From: an uncultured Gammaproteobacteria bacterium
GTDB taxonomy: Bacteria; Patescibacteriota; Microgenomatia; Levybacterales; GWA1-39-11
Length of the DNA stretch: 64,000 nt
Direction of reading: 5' to 3'
Assembly: GCA_964651815.1 (NCBI GenBank)
Contig: CAZYWG010000003.1
Span: forward strand, 52,531 to 116,530
Within the stretch, counting starts at the first letter, position 1, and each line of letters opens with the position of its first letter. The translations under genes and the position numbers were made by a program. Under the pieces are notes generated by a model. The model was given only the letters and a program-made list of their open reading frames with translations, did no database searches and was not told where the DNA came from. This document shows, piece after piece, positions 2,764-39,170 of this stretch.

Positions 2764-2769
2764 AAATTA

Positions 2770-21519: not shown

Positions 21520-22716
21520 CTATTGGATTTGCGAAATTAATGCATAAATTGGAGTTATAACCGAGAGTATTAAGAATCCAACGGAAATACCTAGTGAAAT
21601 TATCAAAATAGGCTCAATCGCAGTTGTAAGAGTTTTGATTCTTACATCCAAATCACGTTCAAAATATTCTGATATTTTATTTAAACTGTCATCAATTTTT
21701 CCTGTTGATTCACCAACTTTAGCCATTTGGATAAGCATCGAGGGAAAAATATTTGTACTTTGCATAGCATCAGACAAAGAAATACCTTTTTCAACTAGCT
21801 CGCTTGTTGAAAGAATTGCAGTTTTGTACCAATAATTGTCCGCTACATTTGCAACAATATGAAGACTTTCAATTATAGATGCACCTGAAGCAACAAGTAG
21901 AGACAGAGTCCTTGATATTTCATTTAACGTGGAAAGCCTAATTATTTGTCCAAAAACTGGTAGTCTTAACTTGACTTTGTCAATTATTTTGATACCTTCT
22001 TCTGTTTTTTTAAATCTTTTATACAAAAAAACACCTACAACACCAAAAAGTATTCCGGGGATATAAAATGTTGTGAAGAATTTAGAAAAACCAAGTACTA
22101 TTCTAGTTGTGAGTGGAAGATTTAAATTTAAGTTTTGATACAAGCTCCCAAGTTGCGGAATAACAAAAACATTCATGATAATAATTACTACAATAACTCC
22201 CGTTATAACTATGGCCGGGTAAACAAGTGCCGACCTAACTTTCTTTTGGAGGTCATCTGATTTTTCAAGGTTATCAGCGAGTCTGCCTAGTACTTTATCA
22301 AGTAATCCGCCCTTTTCTGCGGCCTTAATAAGCGCTATATAAAGATTTGAAAAATAGGGCCTATGTATAGACAAGGCGTCAGAAAATGAAGTCCCTTCTG
22401 AAATTTGCACTATTAAATCATTTATTATTTCCTGCATTCCTTGACTTTGAACTTGGTCTTTGAGTATTTTCAATGACTCCATAAGCGTGAGGCCCGTTAG
22501 CGCCATAGATGAAAGCTGACGCGTGAAAATAATGATATCCGAGTTTTTAACTTTTTTAAAAAAGAGAAATCCCGAAGTATCATCTATTTTTCTTACGGAC
22601 AAAGGGGTGATGTTGGCAGTGCGTAAAAAATCTATAACCTCACGCTCGTTATTTGCTTCAATTTTTCCTTTTGCTTTGAGTGAATTTTTGTCAACTCCTG
22701 TGTAGATAAATTGCAT
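21520..22716 (-). CDS. pilC: type IV pilus inner-membrane platform protein PilC (GspF family)
   Basis: 398 aa; two T2SSF-type repeats with TM segments; adjacent to pilT and pilB. Confidence 0.85.
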   Translation of the reverse strand: MQFIYTGVDKNSLKAKGKIEANNEREVIDFLRTANITPLSVRKIDDTSGFLFFKKVKNSDIIIFTRQLSSMALTGLTLMESLKILKDQVQSQGMQEIINDLIVQISEGTSFSDALSIHRPYFSNLYIALIKAAEKGGLLDKVLGRLADNLEKSDDLQKKVRSALVYPAIVITGVIVVIIIMNVFVIPQLGSLYQNLNLNLPLTTRIVLGFSKFFTTFYIPGILFGVVGVFLYKRFKKTEEGIKIIDKVKLRLPVFGQIIRLSTLNEISRTLSLLVASGASIIESLHIVANVADNYWYKTAILSTSELVEKGISLSDAMQSTNIFPSMLIQMAKVGESTGKIDDSLNKISEYFERDLDVRIKTLTTAIEPILIISLGISVGFLILSVITPIYALISQIQ

Positions 22717-22719
22717 AAG

Positions 22720-23784
22720 TTAGCCGAGAAGTTGCATAAATGTATCCATCCTTAGAGCATAGGTGCGTGCCGTTTCGAGGGAAATTCTTCCTTCTCTAAC
22801 TAAAATTGCAAGAGAAGATTCAAGAGGAATCATGCCGATGTCTTGAGACGTTTCTATTATAGAATCAATAAGATGAGTTTTTGACTCACGAATGTTAGAC
22901 CTAACGGCGTTGTTTGCAATTAACACCTCGCATGCCGCTACCCGCCCGCCGTCAATTCTAGGTATTAGGCGCTGGGAAATAATCCCTCCAAGAGACGCGG
23001 CAAGCTGCGTCCTTATTTGATTTTGTTGTCTGTCAGGGAATGAATCAATTATTCTATCAATACTTTGCGCGGCAGAATTTGTGTGAAGTGTTGAAAAAAC
23101 CAAGTGACCTGTCTCGGCCACAGTAATTGCTGACGCAATACTTTCAGGATCTCTCATTTCACCAATTAACAAAACGTCAGGATCTTCACGCAAGGAACTT
23201 TTGAGCGATTCCCCCCAGGAAAGAGTATCTATGCCTACTTCTCTTTGAGAAATAATGCTTTTTCCCTTTGGGTAAACATATTCAATAGGATCTTCAACAG
23301 TTACAATGTTTCTTGCATCTGTTGTATTAATTTCATTAATTATTGAGGCAATGGTAGTTGATTTGCCGTGTCCTGTGGGTCCTGTGACTAGAATAAACCC
23401 TTGTCTCAACTTAGCAAATTCATGGCAAATTTGCGGAATATTGAGTTCTTCAATGGTTTTGACGCGCGCCGGCAATAAACGGAAAGCCCCGGCAATTGTT
23501 CCCCTCTGGTAATAAAGATTTATTCTGAAACGCCCTAATGCCCCATAATCTCCTCCACCGTAGCCGTAAGAAAAATCTATACATCTATTAACGGCAAGCA
23601 TTTCTTTTTGTGCAGGACTTATTATCGAAAAAACAAGCTCCTCAATGTCTTTTTCTGTCAAAGGTTGGTAATTAAGTGAAACGAGTTTGCCATCAACTCT
23701 TATTGTTGGTACAACACCAACAACAAGGTGCAAATCCGACGCGTTTGCCCCAATAGTTTTATCGAAAAGTTCACTTATAGTCAT
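22720..23784 (-). CDS. pilT: twitching-motility retraction ATPase PilT
   Basis: 354 aa; Walker A GPTGHGKSTT, and the PilT-specific C-terminal AVRSNIRESKTHLID (AIRNLIRE motif). Confidence 0.85.
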   Translation of the reverse strand: MTISELFDKTIGANASDLHLVVGVVPTIRVDGKLVSLNYQPLTEKDIEELVFSIISPAQKEMLAVNRCIDFSYGYGGGDYGALGRFRINLYYQRGTIAGAFRLLPARVKTIEELNIPQICHEFAKLRQGFILVTGPTGHGKSTTIASIINEINTTDARNIVTVEDPIEYVYPKGKSIISQREVGIDTLSWGESLKSSLREDPDVLLIGEMRDPESIASAITVAETGHLVFSTLHTNSAAQSIDRIIDSFPDRQQNQIRTQLAASLGGIISQRLIPRIDGGRVAACEVLIANNAVRSNIRESKTHLIDSIIETSQDIGMIPLESSLAILVREGRISLETARTYALRMDTFMQLLG

Positions 23785-23834
23785 AAATAGTTATTAATAG
23801 TTTAATGTCTTTTAACTTATCTCTTACTTCTTAA

Positions 23835-25667
23835 TTACTCCTGCGCCACTCTCAAAATTTCATCCATAGTCGAAATTCCTTCCAGAACCTTAAGATATCC
23901 ATCCTGTTTCATTGTTACCATTCCCTCCGCTTTTGCTTGATTCTCTATCTCTGTCGCATCGCTTTTGTTTAAAATTAACCTTGCAACTTTTTCGCTCACC
24001 TGTAAGACTTCAAAAATCCCTACCCTTCCAATATAACCCGTATGCCCGCAAATATCACATCCCTGACCTTGGTAAAGCCTTATCTCCGATTCGGGTATAG
24101 TCAAAAGACTCCCCAAATTTTTTTTGAGTTCTTCAATCAAAGCGCGAGCAGGTAGATAGTCTTTTTTACAATTTTGGCAAACCTTTCTTGCAATTCGCTG
24201 CCCTACAATTGCGTTCATTGTGGATGCAATCAGGAAAGGTTCTGCGCCCATGTCAATCAAACGCGGGAGCGCGCCTGAAGCGTTTGAAGTATGGATTGTT
24301 GAAAATACTAAATGTCCGGTAAGTGAAGCCTGAATAGCAAGATCTGTCGTTTCTTTATCACGAATTTCACCAACAAGTATGATATTTGGATCTTGTCGTA
24401 AAAAAGAGCGCAATCCTGTTGCAAAAGTGAGACCTACATCAGGATTGATTTGGACTTGGTTTGCCCCCGAAATTTGATATTCCACAGGGTCTTCAAGTGT
24501 GACAATGTTGACTCGTGTTGTATTGAGTTTTGATAACACAGAGTACAAGCTGGTGGTTTTCCCAGAACCTGTTGGTCCACAAACAAGAATTATACCGTGC
24601 GGTCTTAAGATTGAGGCTTCAAGTGACCGCAGCCCTGTTCCTCGCAATCCAAGCTCGGCAAGCGTTGGGACTCCTCCTGATTTTTTGAGAAGTCGCATAA
24701 CAATTTTTTCACCAAATGAAATAGGCAATGTGCTCACGCGGAGATCTACCTCTTCATTCCCAAATTTAAAATTGAAACGTCCATCTTGGGGTATCCTATG
24801 TTCGTCAATTTTCATGTCGGAAAGAATTTTAATTCTCGAAAGTACTGCTTCTTTTACGGCAAGAGGTAACGCAAGCCTTTCATACAATATTCCGTCAATT
24901 CTGTATCTTACGCGAATTCTGTCTTCTTGAGGCTCCAGATGTACGTCTGACGCCTTACTTTTTATTGCATATTCAAGAATTGTTGAAACAATTTTTGCAA
25001 TTGGAGCCTCTTTAATTACGTCACTTATCGAGTTTTTATCAAATGTTTTTACTCCTGTTATTTCTTCCGTTTCTTTAAGCGCGGCTTTTACATCTCCAAC
25101 AAGTCCAAACGTATACTGATTCTGTATGGCAGTTTTGATTTCGCCCGGGATAGCCTGAAATGTTAAGATAATCTTGTTTGTTTTTTGCTTAAGAAAGTTA
25201 ACTGTTTCAAGGTCAAGTGGATCCCCCATTGCAATAGACAACGTATTTTTTTCTTTGTCATATGCAAATGGAATAATATTAAATCTGTCTGCAACTGCTT
25301 TATTTACATAACTCATTGATTCCGGGGAAAAAGGAAGATTTGCAACTGAAACAAACGGTATTCCAATTAATTTTGCCCGGGTTTCATAAAAAATTTCATC
25401 ACTTACAAATTTTGAATCAAGCAAGACTTTATCAACGGGTAATTCTTTTTGGACTGCCGCGAATTTAACCTTATCGTATTGTTCTTGATTAATTGCTCCA
25501 TCATGGAAAAGTATGCCGGCAATGTCTTTCCCCTGCGCCTGAGAGGAAGCTCCGGCAGTCTGAGCTTGCGAAGTTTGATTTGAAATTGGATTGTTTTGGG
25601 CAGGATCCATAATTTTTGCTACTCGTTTTTCGTCATTTGTTTTTTTGTGCCTAAACTCACAACACAA
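23835..25667 (-). CDS. pilB: type IV pilus assembly ATPase PilB (GspE family)
   Basis: 610 aa; Walker A GPTGSGKTT, tetracysteine Zn motif CQNCKK...CDICGHTG, and an N-terminal GspE_N-like domain. Confidence 0.85.
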   Translation of the reverse strand: MCCEFRHKKTNDEKRVAKIMDPAQNNPISNQTSQAQTAGASSQAQGKDIAGILFHDGAINQEQYDKVKFAAVQKELPVDKVLLDSKFVSDEIFYETRAKLIGIPFVSVANLPFSPESMSYVNKAVADRFNIIPFAYDKEKNTLSIAMGDPLDLETVNFLKQKTNKIILTFQAIPGEIKTAIQNQYTFGLVGDVKAALKETEEITGVKTFDKNSISDVIKEAPIAKIVSTILEYAIKSKASDVHLEPQEDRIRVRYRIDGILYERLALPLAVKEAVLSRIKILSDMKIDEHRIPQDGRFNFKFGNEEVDLRVSTLPISFGEKIVMRLLKKSGGVPTLAELGLRGTGLRSLEASILRPHGIILVCGPTGSGKTTSLYSVLSKLNTTRVNIVTLEDPVEYQISGANQVQINPDVGLTFATGLRSFLRQDPNIILVGEIRDKETTDLAIQASLTGHLVFSTIHTSNASGALPRLIDMGAEPFLIASTMNAIVGQRIARKVCQNCKKDYLPARALIEELKKNLGSLLTIPESEIRLYQGQGCDICGHTGYIGRVGIFEVLQVSEKVARLILNKSDATEIENQAKAEGMVTMKQDGYLKVLEGISTMDEILRVAQE

Positions 25668-25732
25668 AAAAACGACGAGCGAATCGCGGTTAGCTAATTC
25701 AATCGTACGAAATATATTGATATAATGTCAAT

Positions 25733-26371
25733 ATGCGTGCATATGTTTTAATTGGTGGTCAGTCTCAAAAAGAAAAGTACATTTCCGAATTCGTTCAAAA
25801 AAACCATGTTATGCCCTACTATATATATAGATATACTGAGTCATTGAAAATATTGGAGGCAAAAGATATAAAGAAAAAACTCGCCGTGAGTTCTTCGAGC
25901 CAGAAATTATTCATTATAGAATCAGTTCCCACACTTGAATCGCAAAATGCATTACTTAAAACTATTGAAGAATTGCCAGAGGACGCTGACTTTATGTTTT
26001 TAGACGGATCAGGACTTTTGCCGACTGTTGTATCAAGATGCACAATTATAAATTTAGAGCCTGAGCAAATACTTTCGTCGGGGGAATTGGAAACATTGCT
26101 TTCAAATTTATTGGAAAGCAATGCAAGCTATAATTTGCCTTCGGTTATGTTATTTGTTGATAAATTTTCTGAGAAAGATTTTGAAATTGAAGAAATAGAA
26201 CGTGCAATGAGAGAAATAATGTTTAAATTTATAAATACCAAAAATTACTCCTCTGCCCTTTTGGCAGAAAAATTACTGAAAAAATTAATTGATAAAAATT
26301 TGCTTATCAAATACAATAATTTAAACAAACGACTTGTCTTGGAAACGATCTTTCTAAATAATCTTCGATAA
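25733..26371 (+). CDS. hypothetical soluble protein (no recognised motif)
   Basis: 212 aa ORF divergent from pilB and immediately upstream of the pilin array; no TM and no recognisable motif. Confidence 0.4.
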   Translation: MRAYVLIGGQSQKEKYISEFVQKNHVMPYYIYRYTESLKILEAKDIKKKLAVSSSSQKLFIIESVPTLESQNALLKTIEELPEDADFMFLDGSGLLPTVVSRCTIINLEPEQILSSGELETLLSNLLESNASYNLPSVMLFVDKFSEKDFEIEEIERAMREIMFKFINTKNYSSALLAEKLLKKLIDKNLLIKYNNLNKRLVLETIFLNNLR

Positions 26372-26391
26372 ATCAAGGCTAAATTGCCCTA

Positions 26392-26420
26392 TTGACAATG
26401 TATTATGTTTATGGTTATTA
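26392..26420 (+). promoter_or_regulatory. candidate sigma70-like promoter for first pilin (TTGACA -35; weak TTATTA -10)
   Basis: Canonical TTGACA at 26392-26397 with 17-bp spacing to TTATTA at 26415-26420, about 12 bp before the probable pilin ATG at 26432. Confidence 0.3.
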
Positions 26421-26431
26421 TTAATTACAAC

Positions 26432-26956
26432 ATGAAAACTGCTCAATTCGCTAAAGCAAATCTTCGCAAAGGATTCACTCTTATTGAACTTCTTGTAGTC
26501 ATTGCAATCTTAGCTGTTTTGGCAGTAATAGTTTTGACTGTAATAAACCCGGGTAACAGAATTGCATCTGGTAAAAATGCAAGAGTTAGGGCAGATCTTG
26601 CGTCAATTGGACGAGGTGCTACTCTATTTTACTCTGATACTAGCTCTCCTCAGAGTCCTGCTTGTACTCTCCCCGGTTCATATCCTGACGCATTTGGAGT
26701 TACCGCTGCAGGATGTACACAGATTGCATTTCAGGCAACCGTGAATGATCCTGATGGATCTGCATATGTTATAAATAAAACTCCTCCAACTTGTACCGCT
26801 GGTGGAACTACTGCTTGCACAGGATTTGCAATAGCAGGTCCGGCATACACTGACAACGTAATAAACGCAGGTTCACTTAAGGCATGGTGTTGGCAAGCTA
26901 AGACCGGAACAATAACTCAAGTAACAGATAAAACAACTACAAACTGCGCCCCATAA
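26432..26956 (+). CDS. type IV pilin (major pilin candidate A)
   Basis: Class III signal MKTAQFAKANLRKG|FTLIELLVVIAILAVLAV with Glu at +5. The ORF track starts at 26405, but the in-frame ATG at 26432 gives a 14-aa leader. C-terminus has 6 cysteines, 4 in the shared tail. Confidence 0.8.
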   Translation: MKTAQFAKANLRKGFTLIELLVVIAILAVLAVIVLTVINPGNRIASGKNARVRADLASIGRGATLFYSDTSSPQSPACTLPGSYPDAFGVTAAGCTQIAFQATVNDPDGSAYVINKTPPTCTAGGTTACTGFAIAGPAYTDNVINAGSLKAWCWQAKTGTITQVTDKTTTNCAP

Positions 26957-26980
26957 ATAATTGGAGTTGATAAAGAGTCA

Positions 26981-27004
26981 AGCCGGGTTTGCCCGGTTTT
27001 TTTA
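26981..27004 (+). terminator. rho-independent terminator after pilin A
   Basis: CCGGGtttgCCCGG hairpin followed by TTTTTTTATTT, 25 bp after the pilin stop. Confidence 0.55.
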
Positions 27005-27269
27005 TTTGCAAGAAAAATATTTGGTGCGATGCTTTCCATAAATAAGAAAGTTGGAATCAGACTTATACTTCACAATGAAAAACTTTTTATTTTAAATTTT
27101 GAGTTTTTCAGTAAATTAAACCTTGAGAGTAATTTCTAAGTCACAAAGTACAAGCAAAATAGTTCTTGGATTAATTTTATAAGCGCAGGTACCTTCAGTT
27201 TCTTATGGAGCTTGACACCTATCTTGATTTATGTTTTGCTTATTGTAGGTATTAAATATGTAACTTACA

Positions 27270-27833
27270 TTGGTTATGGAATTTATGGGATTTGCACAAA
27301 AGAAAAAGTATTTATCATTTCTTAGTTCTCATTTCTTAGTTGCCAAAGGATTCACCCTTATTGAACTTCTTGTAGTCATTGCAATATTAGCAGTATTGGC
27401 AGTAATAGTTTTGACAGTAATAAATCCGGGTAAAAGAATTGCATCAGGTAAAAATGCAAGAGTTAGGGCAGATCTCGCGTCAATTGGCCGTGCGGCTACA
27501 CTCTTTTACACCGATACTGCTTCGCCTCAAAACCCCACTTGTACTACCCCAAGTTCATATCCAGAAGCATTTGGAGTTACTGCTGGAGGATGCGGTACAA
27601 AGGTTGCATTTCAGGCAACTGTAAATGACCCTGATGGATCTGCATATACTATAAATGTTCCTACTGGGTGTTCTGCTAGTGGAGCAACAGCCTGCACAGG
27701 ATTTGCAATTGCAGGTCCGGCATACACTGACAACGTAATAAACGCAGGTTCACTTAAAGCATGGTGTTGGCAAGCAAAGACCGGAACAGTAACTCAGGTA
27801 ACAGATAAAACAACCACAAACTGCGCCCCATAA
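27270..27833 (+). CDS. type IV pilin (paralog B of pilin A)
   Basis: KG|FTLIELLVVIAILAVLAV prepilin motif. N-terminal about 60 aa and C-terminal about 50 aa are near-identical to pilin A (...TGFAIAGPAYTDNVINAGSLKAWCWQAKTGT[I/V]TQVTDKTTTNCAP) with a divergent middle. Confidence 0.8.
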   Translation: MVMEFMGFAQKKKYLSFLSSHFLVAKGFTLIELLVVIAILAVLAVIVLTVINPGKRIASGKNARVRADLASIGRAATLFYTDTASPQNPTCTTPSSYPEAFGVTAGGCGTKVAFQATVNDPDGSAYTINVPTGCSASGATACTGFAIAGPAYTDNVINAGSLKAWCWQAKTGTVTQVTDKTTTNCAP

Positions 27834-27920
27834 ATATCAAACGTTTTCTTGACAACATATTAAGTTCTTGTTTAAACTTATTAAGATCTTGCTTAAACTA
27901 AAAGAAGGTACGTACAATTT

Positions 27921-28496
27921 ATGAAATCGCCTAAAAAACTCTCATCTACTATTTCTCATTTCTCACCTCAAAAAAGATTTGTCCTGAGCTTGCCTGCGGG
28001 ATTCACCCTTATTGAACTTCTTGTAGTCATTGCAATCTTAGCAGTATTGGCAGGAATGGTTTTATTAATAATAAATCCTGGCAAAAGAATTGCTTCATCA
28101 AAAGATGCAAATGTTAAATCTGACATCACAACCCTAGCTGTTGCTTTGCAAGGTTATTACACGGCTCAAGCTTCCACGCAATATACCACCACTTTAGATG
28201 GTTTGGTAACGTCAGGTGAATTAAAATCGGTGCCGAAACAGCAATCAGGAAATATTACTTGTCCTGCTGCTGCTGCTGGTTCTACGCTGAATGTTTCTGG
28301 GACGGCGGGTACGACTGGTTATTATTATTGCTATTATACGGTTACCGTGTCGGGCGCTGTGACTTCTGTAGCTGTCATGGGTAGTCTTTTCAACGTTGCT
28401 TCAAACACATGGCATTGTTGGGATTCAAATACCGGTGCATATAAATCTTCAACCACCGCTGCCCCAACAGTTGCCTCAAGCCAGCTAAGCTGTTAA
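27921..28496 (+). CDS. type IV pilin-like protein (S/T-rich)
   Basis: 27-aa leader then AG|FTLIELLVVIAILAVLAGMV; Ser/Thr/Gly-rich C-terminal domain with a Cys pair. Confidence 0.75.
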   Translation: MKSPKKLSSTISHFSPQKRFVLSLPAGFTLIELLVVIAILAVLAGMVLLIINPGKRIASSKDANVKSDITTLAVALQGYYTAQASTQYTTTLDGLVTSGELKSVPKQQSGNITCPAAAAGSTLNVSGTAGTTGYYYCYYTVTVSGAVTSVAVMGSLFNVASNTWHCWDSNTGAYKSSTTAAPTVASSQLSC

Positions 28497-28554
28497 ATCA
28501 TAACCTTGTTATACCGCGTATAAACAGGATAGGCGGATATATCAGCCAAACCAA

Positions 28555-30633
28555 TTGATTTCCCCTAATCCTACATATAGAATGGTAGATATTATAAAAG
28601 CACTTAAAAGCAACCGATGGTACTTAGAGTATTTGGCGATATTAATATTCTTAATTTTGGTGGGAATATTATACATTTTTAACTTAACACGAGATGTATG
28701 GGGGGATAGCGGAGACTTAGTTACTGCCGCTTACGTTTTTGGAGTTGCACACCCCTCCGGATACCCCCTGTTTACATTTCTTGGATACTTTTTTTCTCAT
28801 CTTCCACTACCTCAGCCTCCAGTATTTAGAGTTGGTTTGATTTCTGTATTTTCTTCCCTCTTAACTCTTTTTATTTTATTTAAACATTCGTTTAGGGTAA
28901 CTAAAAATATTGCAATGTCGCTTCTTACAGTATCAATACTCGCCTTTTCTTATTTATTTTGGTTTTATACAGAAGTACCCGATGTATTTGCTTTAAATAG
29001 TCTGTTTGCAGTGTTACTTATATTTCTAGCGACCCTTTTTTATCAGGAAAAAAAGATGAAATATCTATACCTTTTAGTATTCTTCTCTGCCCTATCGCTC
29101 ACACACCAGGAAACAATTATTCTGATATTCCCTTCCATAATATTTCTTGTTTTAAAAAGAACTGGCATCATAATCAAAAACAAACGTAACATAATCATTA
29201 TGTTTTTGTCGGCTTTATTGGGTTTTACTCCATTTCTTTATATACCAATTGCAGCAAGTCACAACCCAGTTATCAACTGGGATCACGCCTCAAACATCTC
29301 TAACTTTTTGTATTTAATTTTACGTAAAGATTACGGATCGGCCCCCGGAATTACAAGTAATTTTCCACTTTTTTATAAACTTTTTTTTATAAAGCACTAT
29401 TTTCAGTCAACTATAGAATCATTGACCCTACCAACTATTCTTATTTGCGTGGCTGGTGCTTTAAAGTTATTCAAGAAAGACAAGGGCTTATCCTTAAGCC
29501 TTGTGTTTGCGTTTATTTTGTCAGGACCTCTGTTTGCTCTTTATTTTTTTGTGTTTTATATACCTTATACCAATATACTTTATTGGCTGGGAGCGATTGA
29601 AAGATTTTATATATTGCCAACTTTAGTCCTTATGTTTTTCTTCCCTTACGGACTGATTTATGTAAATGAATTGCTGGATTCTAAGTTTTCCGAAATGTTT
29701 GGTAAATTTATATTTCTTGTATTATTTTTTATCCCATTGTTCTTATTAATAACCAATTATAAAACAGCCACGCTTTCATCATCACAAATTGGAAATAATT
29801 ATGCTAAAGATGTTCTTACTCCAGTTCCTAACAAAACTGCACTTTTAGTGGCAGGAGATAATCCTACCTTCAATTTGTGGTACTTGCATTTTGTTTTAGG
29901 TAAAAGAGCTGACGTAGATTTTATTCATGAGGGTGGCGTTGGAGGAGGGAGCATTATTTGGTTTAATGCTATGCAAGAATTTTTTAGACGTAAAGGTATT
30001 CAATCAGTTAATCTAAGTGACATATATAAATATAAAATAGACATATTTAAGCAGCTCGCAAGCAACAGACCCGTTTTAAGTACTGGAATTATAGATCTAG
30101 GAAATTCTGATTTGATTTGGGTTCCACTTGGGGTTACTTACATTCTTACAAAAAAATCTGATATTCCTTCTGAGAATGACTTCACTGCAGAAGTAGAAAA
30201 GGCTTGGAAAAAGATAAATTCTCCTACAAGAGATAATCTCCTGCCCTCAGAGCAAAATTTTATGATTGCTAAAATCGTAGAATATTATTCATCCGTCCTG
30301 TTTGACACCGGCAATTTTTACAAACTAGTTTTTAAGGATTATAAGATGGCCCAAAAGTATTATAAAAAAGCCGTTGAAATTGACCCAGAAAATCCGGATG
30401 CCTATAGTGAATTAGGTCTTGCATCATTTGAGTTAACAAAGAATTGTCGAGAAGCTGAAGAAGCCGAAAAAACAGCTATAGATCTTAGCTATAGTATCTT
30501 AAGTTCACCAAAACAATATTATGCAAATTTATATCTTATTTATAAAGCATGTAAGGACCAAAAAGGAATGAACCCGCTAATAAATGAATATAATTCAGCC
30601 TTCCATGAAGATATTAAAAAGAATTTTAAATAA
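28555..30633 (+). CDS. GT-C fold membrane glycosyltransferase-like protein (DUF2723/PMT-like) with C-terminal TPR domain
   Basis: 692 aa. About 11 TM helices; acidic first-loop motif DVWGDSGD similar to the DE/DD motif of GT-C (PMT/ArnT/TMEM260-like) enzymes. Soluble C-terminal TPR-like repeats (AQKYYKKAVEIDPENPDAYSELGLA). Lies between pilin genes and pilD. Confidence 0.55.
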   Translation: MISPNPTYRMVDIIKALKSNRWYLEYLAILIFLILVGILYIFNLTRDVWGDSGDLVTAAYVFGVAHPSGYPLFTFLGYFFSHLPLPQPPVFRVGLISVFSSLLTLFILFKHSFRVTKNIAMSLLTVSILAFSYLFWFYTEVPDVFALNSLFAVLLIFLATLFYQEKKMKYLYLLVFFSALSLTHQETIILIFPSIIFLVLKRTGIIIKNKRNIIIMFLSALLGFTPFLYIPIAASHNPVINWDHASNISNFLYLILRKDYGSAPGITSNFPLFYKLFFIKHYFQSTIESLTLPTILICVAGALKLFKKDKGLSLSLVFAFILSGPLFALYFFVFYIPYTNILYWLGAIERFYILPTLVLMFFFPYGLIYVNELLDSKFSEMFGKFIFLVLFFIPLFLLITNYKTATLSSSQIGNNYAKDVLTPVPNKTALLVAGDNPTFNLWYLHFVLGKRADVDFIHEGGVGGGSIIWFNAMQEFFRRKGIQSVNLSDIYKYKIDIFKQLASNRPVLSTGIIDLGNSDLIWVPLGVTYILTKKSDIPSENDFTAEVEKAWKKINSPTRDNLLPSEQNFMIAKIVEYYSSVLFDTGNFYKLVFKDYKMAQKYYKKAVEIDPENPDAYSELGLASFELTKNCREAEEAEKTAIDLSYSILSSPKQYYANLYLIYKACKDQKGMNPLINEYNSAFHEDIKKNFK

Positions 30634-30721
30634 ATCATAAGGGGCGTTTTTTACTACTTGCTTTTATATATTGTTTTTGGCTGGGGTTTACATTTACAAA
30701 ACATTATCTTAAACTTTTAAA

Positions 30722-31516
30722 GTGCAAATATATCTAGGTTTTATTTTCTTTATAATTGGCACCGCAGTCGGGAGTTTTTTAGGGGTTGTTATAGACCGCC
30801 TACCTAGGAAAAAATCAATATGGGTTGGACGGTCTGTTTGTGACTCTTGCCACAAAAAGCTTACGCCAATCGAACTTGTACCCGTCGTTTCATATATAGT
30901 CCAGGGTGGTAAGTGCAGAAAGTGCCATGCTAAACTTCCGCTTAAGCTTCTCATTTGCGAGGTTTTAACAGGCCTGGCTTTTGTTTTAGTGTATCTTGTT
31001 TTTCCCCTTTCAGCCTTCCATTTTCAACCCACTCTTTTTACGTTCTTCACTATTCTTTATCTACTTCTCGTGATGTGTCTTAATATTGTTATCTTTTATA
31101 TAGATCTGGATTTTGGGATTATTCCAGACGAATTAATAGGAGTTTTTGTTATTACGGCCCTGCTTTACAACTTTATTTTTTTCAGAGTTGGTTTTATTGT
31201 TCACATTTTCTCGGGCTTAGGAGCTTTTTTACTATTCTTATTCCTATATCTTATAACGCGAGGCCGTGGAATGGGTTTTGGGGACGTAAAATATGCTCTT
31301 GCAATTGGTCTGTTTTTGGGATTTCCAGCCATAATAGTAAGTCTTTACTTTGCTTTCTTGACAGGCGCGGCAATTTCACTAATACTTATAGTATATGGGA
31401 ATAAACATCTTAAAAGCTCCATTCCGTTTGGTCCGTTCTTGGCTGCTGGGACTATCTTTGCCTGTTTTTGGGGAGAAAGCGCAATTAAATTTATTTTCAA
31501 AGTTTTCAATTGGTAA
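30722..31516 (+). CDS. pilD: prepilin peptidase PilD (A24 family)
   Basis: 264 aa; N-terminal Zn-binding CDSCHKKL...CRKCHAKL tetracysteine motif, polytopic, conserved GFGDVKYALAIG region around the catalytic Asp. Confidence 0.85.
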   Translation: MQIYLGFIFFIIGTAVGSFLGVVIDRLPRKKSIWVGRSVCDSCHKKLTPIELVPVVSYIVQGGKCRKCHAKLPLKLLICEVLTGLAFVLVYLVFPLSAFHFQPTLFTFFTILYLLLVMCLNIVIFYIDLDFGIIPDELIGVFVITALLYNFIFFRVGFIVHIFSGLGAFLLFLFLYLITRGRGMGFGDVKYALAIGLFLGFPAIIVSLYFAFLTGAAISLILIVYGNKHLKSSIPFGPFLAAGTIFACFWGESAIKFIFKVFNW

Positions 31517-32033
31517 AAATAACTTTTTTGCCCCTCGCCTCTTATCTTCCCAGGGTTTCACCCTCATTGAACTTCTTGTAGTCATAGCAATTCTCGGAAT
31601 TCTCTCTTTCGTTTTAACAACTACAATCAATCCACTTGATAAAATTAACGCTGCAAATGACGCAAGAGCCATTTCCACAATAACTCAACTTGGCAAGGCA
31701 ATGGATTCATGCGAAACATTTCATGATGATGCAAAACCATCTCCTGCCGGGAATTCGTTCTTTCCTGACTCTATATGTGACTTAAACACTGTTGAGGAAG
31801 TTAAATTTACTACAATTGCCGCAATAAATAATTATACATTTTACTATTTTGTAACGCCCGCAACCTGCAAAAACAATAAGTCAGTCAAATGTACGGGCTA
31901 CCTATTTGGTATTGGTACGCTAGCGTCAAAAAAATTCATAGCTAAGCCCTACTTTGTTTATACGAACGGAAAAGGTTGTTACATTGGTAATATTCCATCT
32001 TTGTCAAGTATTGGAGCCACATCTTGCCCATAG
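31395..32033 (+). CDS. type IV pilin-like protein (start uncertain; 5' end overlaps pilD)
   Basis: Contains QG|FTLIELLVVIAILGILS. The only ATG in frame (31395) lies 120 bp inside pilD and gives a 51-aa leader; the true start is probably a non-ATG codon nearer 31520-31545. Confidence 0.6.
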   Translation: MGINILKAPFRLVRSWLLGLSLPVFGEKAQLNLFSKFSIGKNNFFAPRLLSSQGFTLIELLVVIAILGILSFVLTTTINPLDKINAANDARAISTITQLGKAMDSCETFHDDAKPSPAGNSFFPDSICDLNTVEEVKFTTIAAINNYTFYYFVTPATCKNNKSVKCTGYLFGIGTLASKKFIAKPYFVYTNGKGCYIGNIPSLSSIGATSCP

Positions 32034-32089
32034 AAAAAGTCTTTATCAACAACAGAATCCATTTTATTGGTTTTTAAAATCACATTTTC

Positions 32090-32629
32090 TTGACAGCACC
32101 CCATAATTATTTCATACTAAGTGTAATGCATAAAAAAGGATTTACATTAATCGAATTGGTTGTTGTAATTACAATACTCAGTATTCTTGCAGTTGTTCTT
32201 GTTACGCTTCTCAATCCAGTTACCCAATTTCAAAAGACTAACGATACACAGAGGAAAAGTGATTTGTATCAAGTCCAGAAGGCTTTGGAAACATATTATG
32301 CCGACCATGGTAGTTATCCAATAAGCACGGGTGCCTACACTATAAGTGACAGTAATGGAGCGCACGCCTGGGGTACTAACTGGCCTTCTTATATGGATGT
32401 ATTGCCGCAGGATCCCAAAACAGCGTCTGGTAAAACATACATTTATTATTCTCTCGATGGGCAGAGCTATAAACTTTATACAAATCTTGAGCGCGGCGGC
32501 AATGACCCTCAGGCATGTAATGTCAGTGGTACGGATTGTCCCCACGTCCCGGGAAATCCAGGGTCAAACTTGTGTGGTGGTGGCAGCTCATGTAATTATG
32601 GGCTTTCAAGTCCAAACGTATCGCCGTAA
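32090..32629 (+). CDS. GspG/PulG-like pseudopilin
   Basis: KKG|FTLIELVVVITILSILAVVLVTLLNPVTQFQKTNDTQRKSDLYQVQKALETYYADHGSYP matches the T2SS-G/minor pilin N-domain consensus. Confidence 0.75.
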   Translation: MTAPHNYFILSVMHKKGFTLIELVVVITILSILAVVLVTLLNPVTQFQKTNDTQRKSDLYQVQKALETYYADHGSYPISTGAYTISDSNGAHAWGTNWPSYMDVLPQDPKTASGKTYIYYSLDGQSYKLYTNLERGGNDPQACNVSGTDCPHVPGNPGSNLCGGGSSCNYGLSSPNVSP

Positions 32630-32668
32630 GAGATTGATTAAATATTAGATATTATATATTATAAAAAT

Positions 32669-33157
32669 ATGCCCAAAGCTATCCTAAAAAAGTCCACGGT
32701 CCGTGGTCCACAGTCTACTGCTTCCGGCTTTACGCTTATCGAATTACTAGTTGTTATTAGTATAATTTCTATTCTAGCGTCTCTGCTTTTGGCAAATTTT
32801 GTTGGAATAAGGCAGCGAGCGCGCGACGGACAAAGAAAATCAGACCTTCGCCAAATCCAAGGCGCACTCGAGTTATACCGCGCTGACAATGGTGCCTATC
32901 CTACTCCCGCAAGCGGAATTACACTAGTTACTTGTAATTCAGCTTTTAGTAACGGTACTACGGTGTATATGTCCAAAGTTCCGTGTGATCCTTTATCATC
33001 AACGGGTTACAACTCCGCCAATTACGGATATTCATCAGCTGGCACTACCTATAATTTGTGTGCTTGTTTGGAAAACGCAAACGATCCTGATATTAATACT
33101 ACAAACGGCACTCTTGGCTGCACCAGCACAAAATTTATCTGTTACACCAACCCATAA
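32669..33157 (+). CDS. GspG/PulG-like pseudopilin
   Basis: SG|FTLIELLVVISIISILASLLLANFVGIRQRARDGQRKSDLRQIQGALELYRADNGAYP. Confidence 0.75.
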   Translation: MPKAILKKSTVRGPQSTASGFTLIELLVVISIISILASLLLANFVGIRQRARDGQRKSDLRQIQGALELYRADNGAYPTPASGITLVTCNSAFSNGTTVYMSKVPCDPLSSTGYNSANYGYSSAGTTYNLCACLENANDPDINTTNGTLGCTSTKFICYTNP

Positions 33158-33168
33158 AACTCTAAGAA

Positions 33169-33738
33169 ATGAAAAATGAAAGAAAGATTAATTCCCAGGT
33201 ATTATCAGCCTCAACAGAAAGCAACAAAAAGGGTTTTACCCTAATCGAGCTTTTAGTCACTTTTTCTATACTTTCAGTTTTAGCTTCAATTGGGTTTCTA
33301 TCTTTTGTAACTTATAGCAGAAAACAAATCATTCAACAGTCTGCCTCAGATTTAAAACAAGCAATTGACATTGCAAGGAATAATTCACTCTCAGTGGTAA
33401 AACCAGCGGGCTGCCCTGCAAACAGCGAGCTGTCTTCATATATAGTCAGCATTTGCGTAGGGGGTAATCCTACATGTAATGTTGGCGGAACTATTTATAC
33501 AGGCAACAATTATTATGAAACACGTGCTAATTGTCAACCAACGCAAGTCGTATCACTTCAAAAAAAGCTTCCACAAAATGCTTCATTTGGAGGCAGCAGT
33601 CCATGTCAAAATATTACGTTTGCAAGTGTCCGTCCGCAGACAACCGGGGTTCCATGTGCTGTTAATATAACGCTTAACGGTCAAACTTTAACAGTTTCAG
33701 TAGATTCACAAGGATACGTATCATTTCCTACAAACTAG
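33169..33738 (+). CDS. minor pilin-like protein
   Basis: KKG|FTLIELLVTFSILSVLASIGFL prepilin motif, 23-aa leader. Confidence 0.65.
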   Translation: MKNERKINSQVLSASTESNKKGFTLIELLVTFSILSVLASIGFLSFVTYSRKQIIQQSASDLKQAIDIARNNSLSVVKPAGCPANSELSSYIVSICVGGNPTCNVGGTIYTGNNYYETRANCQPTQVVSLQKKLPQNASFGGSSPCQNITFASVRPQTTGVPCAVNITLNGQTLTVSVDSQGYVSFPTN

Positions 33739-33751
33739 TATTAAAAATTTT

Positions 33752-34249
33752 TTGTTTTTGGATATGTTTATGAAAAAGAATTGGTCATTTATAGTTGGTT
33801 CTGAAGGGCAAAGCATAATAGAAGCGCTTGTTGCGCTTTCTTCCATTTTAATTTCACTCGCAGCAATTTCTGTTGCAATAATAACAAGTGTCAACAACAC
33901 ACAGTTCATAAAAGACCAATCTATCGCTTCAAAATACGCACAACAAGGCATGGAATACATAAAATATATTAGGAATAATGACCCCGCGACTTTCTTTTCT
34001 TACAATGGCATAAAATGTATGAACCAGGACGATTCCTTTTTAAATACATCATGTTCCAGTGCAAACATAGCTGGAGCATATAAGAGAGAGGCTGAATTTA
34101 GTCAAAATGATTCTCAATGTGTCGCAGCAACCAAGGTAACCGTCACAGTTTACTGGACAAGTACTAAGTGTCAAAGTGGATCTTTTTGTCATTCCTCATC
34201 ACTAATATCCTGTTTTTCAACAATACCCGTTTCTCTTAAATCCTTATGA
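33752..34249 (+). CDS. minor pilin-like protein (PilV-like)
   Basis: GQS|IIEALVALSSILISLAAI: degenerate class III signal with Glu+5 retained; Cys-rich C-terminus. Confidence 0.5.
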   Translation: MFLDMFMKKNWSFIVGSEGQSIIEALVALSSILISLAAISVAIITSVNNTQFIKDQSIASKYAQQGMEYIKYIRNNDPATFFSYNGIKCMNQDDSFLNTSCSSANIAGAYKREAEFSQNDSQCVAATKVTVTVYWTSTKCQSGSFCHSSSLISCFSTIPVSLKSL

Positions 34250-34803
34250 CAAAACACAAAATAAATCAGAAAATTTTTGGATATACGGTTATAGAACTTC
34301 TGGCAGTTGTTTCAATTTTGGTTATAATAGCCGGTGTAGTATCAGGTATTTTGTATTCAACTCTACGTGGAAGCGGCAAGGTGAAAGTTACTGGCGAAAT
34401 AATTCAAAATGGCCAATATGCTATATCTGTTGTTAGGTCTATTATTGACGACTCACGTAATGTTACGCTTATTGATGGCGTTGCGCCTGATTGTACGCAG
34501 CCTATTCCTACTCCTGGTGCATCTTCAATCACATTTAAACGATTAGATAATACTACGACTACAATTTCGTGTGTAGGACCACCTTCCTATGCTATTGCTT
34601 CAAACAGTGCGTCGCTTGTTAACACCCAAAGTGTTAAGATACAAAACTGCATATTTTCGTGTGCTCAGCTAGTAAGCGATCCTTACTCCGTGCCAATAAT
34701 TAACGTTACATTTACAGTTTCAGACCGTGGTACGGGATTATTTGAAAGTCGTGCTTCCTCAGTATTTACAACCTCCTCTTCTCTTAGGAGTTATTCCCCG
34801 TAA
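34246..34803 (+). CDS. minor pilin-like protein (PilW-like)
   Basis: FG|YTVIELLAVVSILVIIAGVV; start overlaps the upstream stop (ATGA). Confidence 0.5.
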   Translation: MTKHKINQKIFGYTVIELLAVVSILVIIAGVVSGILYSTLRGSGKVKVTGEIIQNGQYAISVVRSIIDDSRNVTLIDGVAPDCTQPIPTPGASSITFKRLDNTTTTISCVGPPSYAIASNSASLVNTQSVKIQNCIFSCAQLVSDPYSVPIINVTFTVSDRGTGLFESRASSVFTTSSSLRSYSP

Positions 34804-34874
34804 AAATTCCGGGCACAACTGTCCGTTTCGAGCGAGGGTTGACACGCTCATTCATTTTTATTTATGATAGATAT

Positions 34875-35699
34875 ATGGTAAAAAACCCAAATTCAGGGCA
34901 AATGCTTCTTGTTGTGGTTTTGACAATGATTGTTGCGCTCACTGTGGGTTTATCAGTCGCCTCAAGAACGGTTACCAACCTCAAACTTTCACGCCAAAAT
35001 GATGAGTCAGAACGCGCTTTTCAAGCAGCAGAGGCTGGGGTTCAGCAAGTTTTACAATCGGGAAGCGCACTTAACAACCCAAATTTTCAAAATAACGCTA
35101 CATATAATATCGGATCCGTTTCTCATTTAAACGGCGCGAGTATTGGGCTTAATGGTGGAGAGATTGTTGACCAGGATTCTGGGCTTGATGTCTGGCTTTC
35201 AAATTATCCCGATTTTAGTAGCACTATGGGAAACGGTAGTGCTGCTAGCATTACGTTGTATTGGGGTACAGATAATCAGACTACATGCAATACAGGTGGT
35301 TTATCAAACGTTAAATCCGCTCTTGAAATTGCCATACTTTCAGGAAACAAGCTGAATCCCACATTTACTAAAAATTTATATGAGGCAAACACTTGTGGAA
35401 GAATTGCCGGCGCTCTTGCTCCAACCGGTGGGAACGTTACTCCAAGCGGCACAAGCGTTCACTACCAAAATTACGTGACTTTTACAGTTACAAACGGTTT
35501 GATTATGAAAGTAATTCCCATTTATAATTCTTCAAAGATTTTTGCGATATCAAATACAGGGGGCGTAACTTTTCCTCCACAAGGGACCCTGGTGCAGGCA
35601 ACTGGGACTGCCGGAGATACAGTCCGCAAAATAACATATTTTGCTTCTTACCCTCAGATACCTGTTGAAATGTTTCCATATGCACTTATTACACAATGA
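34875..35699 (+). CDS. PilX-like minor pilin (PilX_N domain)
   Basis: MVKNPNSGQMLLVVVLTMIVALTVGLSVASRTVTNLKLSRQNDESERAFQAAEAGV matches the PilX N-terminal pattern (..ALVVALL..LG..S.....AGN....AF.AAEAG). The ORF track starts at 34839; the internal ATG is preferred. Confidence 0.55.
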   Translation: MVKNPNSGQMLLVVVLTMIVALTVGLSVASRTVTNLKLSRQNDESERAFQAAEAGVQQVLQSGSALNNPNFQNNATYNIGSVSHLNGASIGLNGGEIVDQDSGLDVWLSNYPDFSSTMGNGSAASITLYWGTDNQTTCNTGGLSNVKSALEIAILSGNKLNPTFTKNLYEANTCGRIAGALAPTGGNVTPSGTSVHYQNYVTFTVTNGLIMKVIPIYNSSKIFAISNTGGVTFPPQGTLVQATGTAGDTVRKITYFASYPQIPVEMFPYALITQ

Positions 35700-36727
35700 A
35701 AACAAAAACAATTGGCCTTGATATAGGAAGCACCTCTATCAGGGTTGCACACTTAAGGCATGAAGGAAATTCCTTTACCCTCGACTCTATTGCATCTATG
35801 CCGCAAAATACAAACGGATTGATATCCGATTCATTACTTGACCAGCAAGGGCTTGCAGATTCGATAAAAAAACTTATTTCTTCAGCAAATATTCACACCA
35901 AGGAAGTTGTGCTTTCAATTCCTGATAGCATGGTTTATACCAAAATAATACAAATGCCACAGCTTTCAGACCAAGAATTATCTGCAGCTTTAAAATTTGA
36001 AATGGAACAATACATACCTCTCCCAGTTGATCAGGTAAAGACAGATTGGGAAGTGCTTAGTAGGAATGAAACAAGTGGGAAAAAGACAATGAATGTCATG
36101 ATTGTTGCGGCCCCTCTCTCACTTCTTTCAAAATATGAAAAAATTATGGACATGGCGGGCTTGCTACCTGATGCAATTGAGACTGAGATTGTATCTGCCC
36201 ACCGTTCATTATTACCGCTAATTAACAATCCCGAGGCAAATATGATTGTGCATATTGGAGCCATAACTACAAGCATTGCAATAGTTAAAGAAGGTAAAAT
36301 AAAAATGATTTTTTCGCTAGGGCTTGGTGGGGCAGCTATGACTCGCTCAATATCAGTTGATCTTGGTATAGATATATCGCAAGCTGAAAATTACAAAAAA
36401 GCTTATGGACTTTCACAATCGGCATTTGAAGGGAAGATCGCAAAAGTCCTTGACCCTGTTTTGACATCTATAGTAGCAGACGTTAAAAAAGCAATGCTAT
36501 CTTACCATGAAAAAAATAACAACGAAAATATTAAACAATTGGTTTTGTCGGGCGGCTCCTCTCTCCTCCCAGGACTTGATGTTTATCTAACAAACGCATT
36601 ATCCACTCAAGTAGTTTTGGGTCGTGCTTGGTCTGCTTATAACATTTCAAATATACCTGATGAGTTACAGTCCCAAGCACCCGCATACAATGTAGCGATT
36701 GGTTTGGCTCTACGTAATTTAGTATGA
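35696..36727 (+). CDS. pilM: type IV pilus assembly protein PilM (actin-like ATPase fold)
   Basis: 343 aa; N-terminal IGLDIGSTSIRVAHL phosphate-1 motif and ...VLSGGSSLLPGL adenosine motif; start overlaps the pilX stop. Confidence 0.8.
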   Translation: MKTKTIGLDIGSTSIRVAHLRHEGNSFTLDSIASMPQNTNGLISDSLLDQQGLADSIKKLISSANIHTKEVVLSIPDSMVYTKIIQMPQLSDQELSAALKFEMEQYIPLPVDQVKTDWEVLSRNETSGKKTMNVMIVAAPLSLLSKYEKIMDMAGLLPDAIETEIVSAHRSLLPLINNPEANMIVHIGAITTSIAIVKEGKIKMIFSLGLGGAAMTRSISVDLGIDISQAENYKKAYGLSQSAFEGKIAKVLDPVLTSIVADVKKAMLSYHEKNNNENIKQLVLSGGSSLLPGLDVYLTNALSTQVVLGRAWSAYNISNIPDELQSQAPAYNVAIGLALRNLV

Positions 36728-37263
36728 AAGAAGATATAAACCTAGTCCCTCAAAAAAAAGAAGAACGAAAAATGTTAAACAACTATTTTTATGCTTCTTT
36801 GGGATTTTTTTCAGTGATGTTTTTGTTAGGTGCACTGCTTATCGCTTATTCATTAATAATTAGGGCTGGACTTGGGGGACTTACAAATGAGGAAGCAAAT
36901 GTCCGTTCACAGCTCACTGCACTATCTGGGAGAATAGGTAAAATTGCTTTGGTAAATGAACGTACGGACTCTATAAAAAATATTATTTCAAATCGGGATA
37001 AATTGACTATTTTGACTTCAAATCTTCTTGCCGCAATCCCTAATACTTTCACAATATCTTCACTAGTTGGGACAGATAAAGCAATACAACTTGCAATATC
37101 ATCAAATAGTTTAGCCGATTTTGACAATTTCTTTGAGCAAATCGTTCCTAAACTTGCAAAAAATAAGCTTTCAAGTATTTCCTCGGTAGAAATTAGTTCG
37201 TTTAGCCAGGATGGGGATGGGTACTCACTATCTGTGAGTTTTTTATTAAGTCAGCCTAAATAA
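36724..37263 (+). CDS. pilN: type IV pilus assembly protein PilN
   Basis: 179 aa, bitopic (cytoplasmic N-terminus, one TM, periplasmic coiled-coil/ferredoxin-like domain); 4-bp overlap with pilM (ATGA). Confidence 0.6.
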   Translation: MKEDINLVPQKKEERKMLNNYFYASLGFFSVMFLLGALLIAYSLIIRAGLGGLTNEEANVRSQLTALSGRIGKIALVNERTDSIKNIISNRDKLTILTSNLLAAIPNTFTISSLVGTDKAIQLAISSNSLADFDNFFEQIVPKLAKNKLSSISSVEISSFSQDGDGYSLSVSFLLSQPK

Positions 37264-37267
37264 TTAT

Positions 37268-37918
37268 ATGAAGTATAAAATTCCGGAAATTATTATTAAA
37301 CATAAAAAAATATTAACTCCACTGCTTTTTATAGTATTGGGTATATTTGTGTTGTTGTTTATAATAATACCTCAATTTTCAACTATTTCTGATTTAAATA
37401 ATCAGGTTGCTGCAGAAAATGATAAAGTAAATACACTTAAAAATTCTCTGCAAGTTGTTTCATCCCAAGATGACCAAGACTTAAACGCAAAAGTGGGAAT
37501 TGCAACGGATGCATTGCCTACAGCAAAAGATGTATCAAGAATTTTTTCGGCGCTATCCCAAGCTTCTGATGCTTCCCAAACAGTACTTGGAGAATTTTCT
37601 TTGAACGTTGGAGCAATATACGGTCGTGCTCAGCAACTGGAAGGAAAAATACAAGGGACCCCGTCAATTACCGTAAATGTACGTGTTGAAGGTAATGGTG
37701 CTCGGGAGCTTTCTGATTTTGCAAAAGACTTGCAAAAAGCACTTCCTCTTTCGGAAATTAGACAAATGGGAATTTCTGACAATTCAGCTTCTTATCAAAT
37801 CAACTTTTTTTATAAGCCTGTAGATTTATCGGTTATATCAAAACAAGACAAGGTTGTTCTTCCAAATCAGAATGCCGTGAATTTGCTTAATGAGCTTAAA
37901 ACTTGGGAAAGCCAATAA
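37268..37918 (+). CDS. pilO: type IV pilus assembly protein PilO
   Basis: 216 aa bitopic protein with coiled-coil (NQVAAENDKVNTLKNSLQ) immediately after pilN. Confidence 0.55.
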   Translation: MKYKIPEIIIKHKKILTPLLFIVLGIFVLLFIIIPQFSTISDLNNQVAAENDKVNTLKNSLQVVSSQDDQDLNAKVGIATDALPTAKDVSRIFSALSQASDASQTVLGEFSLNVGAIYGRAQQLEGKIQGTPSITVNVRVEGNGARELSDFAKDLQKALPLSEIRQMGISDNSASYQINFFYKPVDLSVISKQDKVVLPNQNAVNLLNELKTWESQ

Positions 37919-37921
37919 GAT

Positions 37922-38847: not shown

Positions 38848-38856
38848 AGGATATTA

Positions 38857-39114: not shown

Positions 39115-39170
39115 GTAAAGGCTATTTTACCATTTTTAAGTATTAAGAGTCAATCAATGTGGAAATGGTG

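Follow-up and report, generated by a model that had tools for sequence, protein, structure and literature searches.

Tandem type IV pilin paralogues, alike at their ends and variable in a probably exposed core, in a Patescibacteria pilus locus

The window analysed here, a 64-kb stretch of contig CAZYWG010000003.1 with 38% GC, holds a complete type IV pilus (T4P) locus in which two neighbouring prepilin genes, pilins A and B, are near-copies of one another, and it is this pair that we describe. As the preliminary description of this DNA had it, the two reading frames lie at 26432-26956 and 27270-27833 and are intact and co-oriented, and the peptide strings it quoted from them are correct. The class III signal motif G↓FTLIEL (the arrow marks cleavage) is present in all 7 of the 7 pilins of the locus, and among named organisms the closest homologues of both the pilins and an adjacent glycosyltransferase come from metagenome-assembled genomes (MAGs) of Candidatus Levybacteria, Woesebacteria and the "Patescibacteria group", so that the organism would probably belong to the Microgenomates. 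The features of the locus are given below, the pilins first; pilB, pilT and pilC are assigned from their open reading frames (ORFs) and from the Pfam T2SSF, T2SSE and MshEN matches of their orthologues in three related loci (L001, L002 and L089).

26392-26421, + strand: promoter-like site of pilin A, TTGACA-18 nt-TATTAT, matching the consensus at 11 of 12 positions
26432-26956, + strand: pilin A prepilin gene, with a 13-residue leader MKTAQFAKANLRK and then a 161-residue mature pilin from 26471
26611-26815, + strand: variable core of pilin A between the maximum chi-square breakpoints, comprising the end of alpha1, the alpha-beta loop and the beta1-beta2 loop
26980-27009, + strand: intrinsic-terminator-like hairpin after pilin A, an 8-bp stem with 5 GC pairs followed by the T-run TTTTATTT
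27270-27833, + strand: pilin B prepilin gene, whose ORF starts with TTG at 27270, the likely starts being ATG at 27276 or 27285, with the mature pilin from 27348
~27488-27692, + strand: pilin B counterpart of the variable core
27921-28496, + strand: pilin C, the third tandem pilin, with a globular-domain family other than that of A and B
28555-30633, + strand: GT-C-type glycosyltransferase of 692 residues, TMEM260-like/DUF2723 with PMT_2 and C-terminal TPR repeats (Pfam)
30722-31516, + strand: prepilin peptidase PilD of the A24 family (PF06750, PF01478)
31395-33738, + strand: the four minor pilin genes D to G, from pilin motif and Pfam, with uncharacterised ORFs after them
35696-36727: PilM homologue
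36724-37918: two ORFs with no Pfam match, where PilN and PilO normally sit
25733-26371: holB-like gene, in the same inverted block as pilB, pilT and pilC
23835-25667, - strand: pilB, T4P ATPase
22720-23784, - strand: pilT, T4P ATPase
21520-22716, - strand: pilC, T4P platform protein

The comparison of A with B was made over 483 gap-free aligned nucleotides taken from a global alignment. They differ at 62 sites (87.2% identity), and the proteins are 86.5% identical over 163 residues, the first 29 residues of the mature pilins being the same in both. The identity is unevenly spread, with 159/180 positions shared in the first 180 nt after the cleavage Gly (88.3%, and 93% over the first 120 nt), 125/159 in the middle 159 nt (78.6%, with two single-codon indels) and 134/141 in the last 141 nt (95.0%). 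In a two-breakpoint maximum chi-square analysis the divergent block runs from aligned nt 143 to 345 (permutation p<=0.003), with 47 differences in the 202 nt inside it and 15 in the 281 nt outside, and this rules out the uniform divergence that had been named beforehand as refuting the pattern. The pattern of conserved ends around a divergent centre therefore stands, with some adjustment of the figures and wording given for it: the values of ~90% for the first 180 bp and ~96% for the last 140 bp were slightly high, the core said to have diverged strongly is indeed less similar but still shares 79% of its DNA and ~72% of its protein sequence, and the insert described as different after NDPDGSAY does differ, by only a one-codon indel plus substitutions. 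The two genes are homologous from the Lys-Gly-Phe codons at the cleavage site to a point 3 nt past the stop codon; the leaders and flanks align no better than chance (upstream p=0.22, downstream p=0.77).

Pilins A, B and C all carry K/A-G↓FTLIELLVVIAIL at the cleavage site, with the Gly(-1), Phe(+1), Glu(+5) motif. PF07963 matches A with E=6e-9 and B with E=2.8e-7, and TIGR02532 matches as well. Six of six cysteines are kept in both, and the content of Gly, Ala, Ser and Thr (GAST) is 43% in A and 43-45% across the two, values covered by the range of major pilins (PMC11623550). The same locus encodes the prepilin peptidase, PilB, PilT and PilC, and PilM. Pilin A is a candidate for the major subunit, being the orthologue of the single pilin that relatives carry beside pilC and having, besides its GAST content, a strong promoter-like site and a terminator. 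An AlphaFold2 model of pilin A, built on a 14-sequence family alignment, has a predicted local distance difference test score (pLDDT) of 83.3, a predicted template modelling score (pTM) of 0.69 and the lollipop fold, with alpha1 at residues 17-71 (prepilin numbering), a long loop at 72-112 and strands at 113-117, 131-137, 151-155 and 160-164. Foldseek against the PDB returns weak pilin matches, the best being full-length PAK pilin (1oqw, E=0.04, template modelling score 0.39-0.46), and the match of the sequence profile to the PDB is limited to the N-terminal helix. When the 22 amino acid differences between A and B are placed on the model, the helix (59 columns) has 4 of them, the loops (60 columns) have 17, all within predicted loop residues 72-130, and the stretch from beta2 to the C-terminus (44 columns) has 1. 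Alignment and model together thus support the view of A and B as tandem paralogues that are conserved at both ends and variable in a core which is probably exposed.

Constraint was estimated per segment by the Nei-Gojobori method, as the ratio of nonsynonymous to synonymous substitution (dN/dS) and the proportion of synonymous sites that differ (pS). The N-terminal 40 codons give a dN/dS of 0.04 and a pS of 0.22, the core a dN/dS of 0.25 (0.35 in its central part) and a pS of 0.41-0.43, and the C-terminal 45 codons a dN/dS of 0.06 and a pS of 0.15; over the whole gene dN/dS is 0.20 with a synonymous divergence (dS) of about 0.38. The suggestion that the pair is a very recent duplication under diversifying selection does not agree with these values. 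Such a dS, with leaders and flanks diverged past alignment, is not that of a very recent event, and a core dN/dS of 0.25-0.35, which rises to about 1 only in a 15-codon window over the beta1-beta2 loop, fits relaxed constraint, it being understood that two sequences cannot test positive selection. Polarising the 22 amino acid differences with 12 family members puts the outgroup state in A at 7, in B at 9 and leaves 6 ties, so both copies have changed, and the columns that differ between A and B also vary among the orthologues. Gain or loss of Ser and Thr was considered as a sign of glycosylation and set aside, as 12 of the 22 differences involve them, about the expectation from a Ser/Thr content of 27%.

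Uneven silent divergence was tested on codons for identical amino acids, with a structure-based partition and with a scan of third positions. Among degenerate codons for identical amino acids, 29 of 139 differ, and neither a breakpoint scan (p=0.28) nor the partition of the preliminary description (Fisher p=0.36) is significant; the structure-based partition, fixed a priori, has 12/55, 12/43 and 5/41 codons differing (p=0.18). The silent divergence is compatible with a single age, and the conserved-ends pattern is mainly nonsynonymous and for the most part a footprint of uneven constraint on the pilin fold.

The family to which A and B belong is small, with ~14 full-length members, of which the nearest outside this genome are 57-61% identical. 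Related loci share the flanking synteny ppa, gyrB ... pilM, trmD. Two of them (L001 and L002) have one family pilin between pilC and pilD, with pilD ~110 nt past the pilin stop, and a third (L003) begins just upstream of its pilin and has pilD next. In L085 the family pilin is likewise single-copy, with a larger unrelated pilin before it and one unrelated gene before pilD. A metagenome scan with a degenerate C-terminal pattern returned two loci, L084 (identical to P0005) and L085, each with one family pilin. What the window holds in addition to these relatives is pilin B, pilin C and the glycosyltransferase. The region upstream of pilin A aligns with the upstream regions of the single-copy orthologues in L002, L003 and L001, and the promoter-like site ends 10 nt before the ATG that opens the MK... 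leader, the distance in the orthologues being ~10 nt, which implies a leaderless or near-leaderless major-pilin mRNA with no Shine-Dalgarno sequence. Pilin A, which has its promoter, short leader and position in common with the orthologues, is therefore the ancestral gene. On this evidence of sequence and synteny we take pilin A to be the orthologue of the single major pilin of the relatives and pilin B to be a lineage-specific extra copy. The orthologous promoter reads TTGACA-18 nt-TATTAT/TAATTA (window 26392-26434; L002 7210-7255; L003 1-36). Upstream of pilin B there is a -35 element, TTGACA, at ~27213, and an Rfam scan of the A-B spacer gave no match. An unequal crossover between A and C was tried as the origin of B and rejected: the downstream flank of B should then resemble that of A, and it does not (p=0.77), so that such an event is possible only with later deletions.

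The 5' ends of the tandem pilins tell of a more complex history. The leader of B is unrelated to that of A and ends with ..KKKYLSFLSSHFLVAK before the mature pilin; its segment 27315-27352 matches inside the leader of C (27942-27998) at 27/38 nt without gaps (shuffle p about 0.001), the junctions (marked by a slash) being ..SSHFLVAK/GFTL in B and ..ISHFSPQKRFVLSLPA/GFTL in C. Over their first 57 mature nt A, B and C agree at 93-96% of positions, and in the first 40 mature codons the three share 71-84% of the codons at identical residues, against 19-39% with the minor pilins E-G, a contrast by which codon bias was rejected as the source of the nucleotide identity in alpha1N. At 7 of the 8 sites that differ between A and B in the first 120 nt, B is the same as C. 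Taken together these observations indicate that recombination among tandem pilins helped to build the present genes, with B apparently made of a C-type 5' end and an A-type body. The C-like 5' end of B, and the way similarity breaks off at either end of the genes, speak for recombination in their history but do not show a present-day conversion of the A/B ends. The term mosaic, applied earlier to the pair, is thus partly apt, as the 5' ends of A, B and C bear signs of recombination, though this is elsewhere than it had been located. In addition, the 26-residue leader of C contains a relic cleavage motif, KRFVL (cf. KGFTL), at 21 nt before the functional G↓FTLIELL, and this points to the insertion of a new alpha1N segment into C by recombination. 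In relatives, orthologues of pilin C (P0121 and P0122) have the major pilin on one side and PilD on the other.

Other loci show both what conversion and what selection can do at this end of a pilin gene. In L064, a Patescibacteria MAG (2293-3531), tandem pilins that are 77% identical overall have a leader and first ~100 nt at 100% identity and the rest at 58-82%, a clear case of 5' gene conversion of tandem pilins and a much clearer one than A/B. In L086 two tandem pilins share 44/50 N-terminal residues and only 22/44 codons, from which it follows that selection alone can keep co-resident alpha1 helices alike. The same segment in A (26471-26605) and B (27348-27482) also resembles L002 (7286-7420), with 27-29 of 38-39 codons shared and a pS of 0.32-0.40. 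Between the window and L002, silent sites of PilT, PilB and PilC are saturated (pS 0.74-0.84), and the L003 and L001 pilins are at this baseline; nucleotide-level constraint on alpha1N, or exchange between lineages, may lie behind the L002 similarity.

Based on these data we now put forward a hypothetical history and function for the pair, which we consider probable in its main lines: A and B would be a duplicated major pilin whose divergence lies in surface loops under uneven constraint, with some 5' recombination among A, B and C. A single ancestral pilin, represented by A, would have given rise to the lineage-specific copy B, in which the homology covers the coding sequence of the mature pilin and the leader is of the pilin C type. 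After the split, at a dS of about 0.38, both copies would have been held by purifying selection, with alpha1, which forms the filament core, and the beta2-beta4 sheet and C-terminal tail, which pack the subunits, nearly frozen (dN/dS 0.04-0.06), and with amino acid changes gathering in the alpha-beta and beta1-beta2 surface loops of both. Because the parts that make filament contacts are identical, we propose that the neighbouring PilD cleaves both pilins and that a single PilB/PilC/PilT machine assembles them, with A as the principal, strongly expressed subunit. The outcome would be either mixed filaments, as with PilE1 and PilE2 of Streptococcus sanguinis, or alternative filaments, differing only in their exposed loops; alternative filaments would present a different surface chemistry (host adhesion, phage or predator recognition, glycosylation pattern). 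Two major-pilin genes with the same filament core and different loops are a natural candidate for making filaments, mixed or alternative, by which surface recognition becomes broader or different.

Several observations weigh against this proposal. The -10 element of pilin B is poor, which leaves the expression of B a prediction only. The third-position scan gives p=0.019, with a local hot spot at codons 47-63 (11/17 differ) in place of two clean ends, and the C-terminal third has the least silent divergence (pS 0.15 vs 0.43 in the core). Finally, the homology has abrupt edges with unalignable leaders and flanks, though in-gene silent sites are only ~30% different; such edges are not predicted by simple duplication and divergence, so recombination or conversion contributed at some point. 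The hot spot itself (26612-26665 vs 27489-27542) runs from the end of alpha1 into the beginning of the alpha-beta loop, where third positions are near-saturated and the flanks far more similar, and this 17-codon patch may be a short tract of different history. Some of these points speak for a rival that in part overlaps with duplication plus constraint, namely concerted evolution, in which A and B would be older paralogues whose mature-coding sequence, or its ends, were periodically homogenised by conversion anchored on alpha1N and the C-terminus while the core escaped or re-diversified. It would account for the sharp homology edges at the cleavage motif and the stop with flanks at chance level, for pS values of 0.22 in the N-terminal segment, 0.43 in the core and 0.15 in the C-terminal one, for the third-position result (p=0.019) and for the 5' affinities of B, that is, the codon sharing of 71-84% among A, B and C against 19-39% with E-G, the identity of B with C at 7/8 differences and the homology of its leader with part of the C leader (27/38 nt, p about 0.001); the L064 pair is, moreover, an instance from this phylum of tandem pilins homogenised at the 5' end. 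However, the conservative silent-site tests are not significant (p=0.28, 0.36 and 0.18), the longest identical tract between A and B is 47 nt (p=0.075), the alpha1N codons are conserved with respect to L002 too, so that nucleotide-level constraint could mimic conversion, and the L086 pair shares its N-terminal protein sequence with only 22/44 codons in common. Gene conversion of the ends, as first suggested for this pair, is not demonstrated by so weak a silent-site heterogeneity (p=0.28, 0.18, 0.019), and we hold concerted evolution to be possible but doubtful. The C-type leader of B on an A-type body and the relic cleavage motif in the C leader also lead to a bolder reading, in which A, B and C are a recombining array, short-tract conversion shuffles and homogenises the leader and alpha1N, the diverging loops of the two A-type bodies are substrates of the adjacent glycosyltransferase and the product is a heteropolymeric, differentially glycosylated pilus of an episymbiont of the candidate phyla radiation (CPR). 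We think this improbable, and equally so its corollary that the silent conservation of alpha1N between organisms reflects exchange of 5' pilin segments between lineages; if true, the array would help the cell to recognise hosts or escape phages.

An assembly artefact would remove the pair altogether, whether by joining two strain alleles of one pilin end to end or by resolving a repeat wrongly. An independent Logan assembly of SRR9179560 does break inside the alpha1N repeat shared by pilin C, so repeats perturb short-k assembly here, and an exact look-up of pilin A in the assemblies index found nothing, neither A nor B being on record in an independent assembly. The contig concerned, L091, equals window 28013-40165 at 100% identity and starts at a point where a k=31 graph should in principle break; it confirms the downstream sequence and the presence of the repeats in the reads, and the A-B junction lies outside its span. 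Set against this, the downstream 12 kb are reproduced at 100%, the two copies differ at 62 sites, their leaders are unrelated, the spacers (313 nt and 87 nt) are unique, a terminator belongs to A by itself, and the longest exact repeats (47 nt for A/B and 38 nt for B/C) would be spanned by reads of at least 100 nt, the read length being assumed. Tandem pilin pairs are also common in other genomes. An artefact, which had been named as refuting the pair, is in our estimation very improbable.

Programmed variation of the pilins, by a donor cassette of the Neisseria type (pilE/pilS) or an inversion of the Moraxella type, is one reading of the "cassette-like" antigenic or phase variation first proposed for the pair. 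The resemblance to it is a general one, of conserved termini around a variable exposed segment in neighbouring pilins: as in Neisseria, there is a constant N-terminus, there are variable exposed segments between conserved sequence, and related copies lie nearby. The pilS copies of Neisseria are promoterless and lack the 5' constant region, and that system needs a G-quadruplex structure and RecA-mediated non-reciprocal transfer. In contrast, both A and B are complete, full-length genes with a start codon, their own leader, a cleavage motif and at least a -35-like promoter element. Truncated silent pilin copies are absent from the 64 kb, where blastn and tblastn with A, B and C found no further core or 3' copy beyond the shared N-terminal segment, and no G-quadruplex (G3+N1-7 x4) occurs on either strand of 25001-29000. 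Neither A nor B contains homopolymer or short-repeat tracts. Nor is there a likeness to the Piv-type switch of Moraxella, where alternative 3' segments of the pilin gene face opposite ways between inverted repeats and an invertase gene is close by, as A and B are co-oriented, no convincing inverted repeats surround them (the weak AT-rich ones are 75-84% complementary) and there is no recombinase gene among the neighbours of the pilin locus. Within the window this explanation is largely refuted, and we give it hardly any weight.

Tandem pilin paralogues are common, and ordinary constraint explains the A/B pattern. We surveyed 86 loci, including 80 unrelated pilin loci from a profile scan that caught generic GFTLIELL/VIAIL patterns and no close strains, and in about 11/86 there are tandem pilins whose globular parts are at least 40% identical; the A/B pair is to this extent a modest, incremental observation. 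Its closest analogue is the PilE1/PilE2 pair of S. sanguinis, encoded by adjacent genes with ~78-80% protein identity, whose main difference is in the alpha1-beta1 loop and which were shown experimentally to co-assemble in one filament at a ratio of ~4:3 (PMC6497953). Like them, A and B are adjacent, co-oriented, full-length genes in a pil locus and have an identical N-terminal helix, with differences in the alpha-beta and beta1-beta2 loops where those of PilE1/PilE2 are mainly in the alpha1-beta1 loop. Unlike in S. sanguinis, co-assembly is predicted for A and B from the genes alone, there is no detectable sequence relation past the N-terminal motif, and the six cysteines and CPR origin of A/B stand against the flexible C-terminus of PilE1 and its firmicute origin. 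T4P are nearly universal in Patescibacteria and are needed for host attachment in the few cultivated members; in the CPR bacterium Nanosynbacter lyticus TM7x they are central to host attachment, and the major pilins are small, highly expressed, GAST-rich and lollipop-shaped (PMC11623550). PilA1 and PilA2 of TM7x belong to two pilus systems at separate loci and are not close paralogues, whereas A and B are tandem near-copies served by what we propose is one machine.

The glycosyltransferase at 28555-30633, between pilin C and PilD, has homologues that are 36-43% identical and widespread in Patescibacteria. In 3 of the 3 contexts inspected the homologue adjoins a pilin gene (L087 5001-7046, L089 5001-7022 and L090 1040-3037), the order in L089 being pilB-pilT-pilC-pilin-glycosyltransferase; GT2 genes adjoin it in L087/L088 and L090, L088 being a shorter contig with the same glycosyltransferase protein as L087. 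In the group IV pilin system of Pseudomonas aeruginosa, the gene for the GT-C glycosyltransferase TfpW lies directly downstream of the pilin gene. The window resembles it in having a GT-C gene directly downstream of pilins whose loops are rich in Ser, Thr and Pro. Unlike TfpW in domain type, the enzyme here is TMEM260/DUF2723 with TPR repeats, and it is on these grounds of gene neighbourhood and domains that the TMEM260-like protein is a candidate pilin O-glycosyltransferase, pilin glycosylation itself being likewise a candidate function. The linkage of pilin to GT-C may mark a CPR pilin glycosylation system, and together with the signs of 5'-end recombination among co-resident pilins it is a more useful lead than the A/B pair.

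Two minor observations concern the surroundings of the pair. The sole short tandem repeat among pilins A, B and C is a run of CTG x5 (Ala5) at 28264-28278 in pilin C; it is in frame, so that a change in its length would add or remove alanines and not switch the gene off. The block holB-pilB-pilT-pilC (21520-26371) is reversed with respect to the otherwise syntenic L001, L002 and L089, and one breakpoint of this inversion lies immediately upstream of the pilin A promoter.

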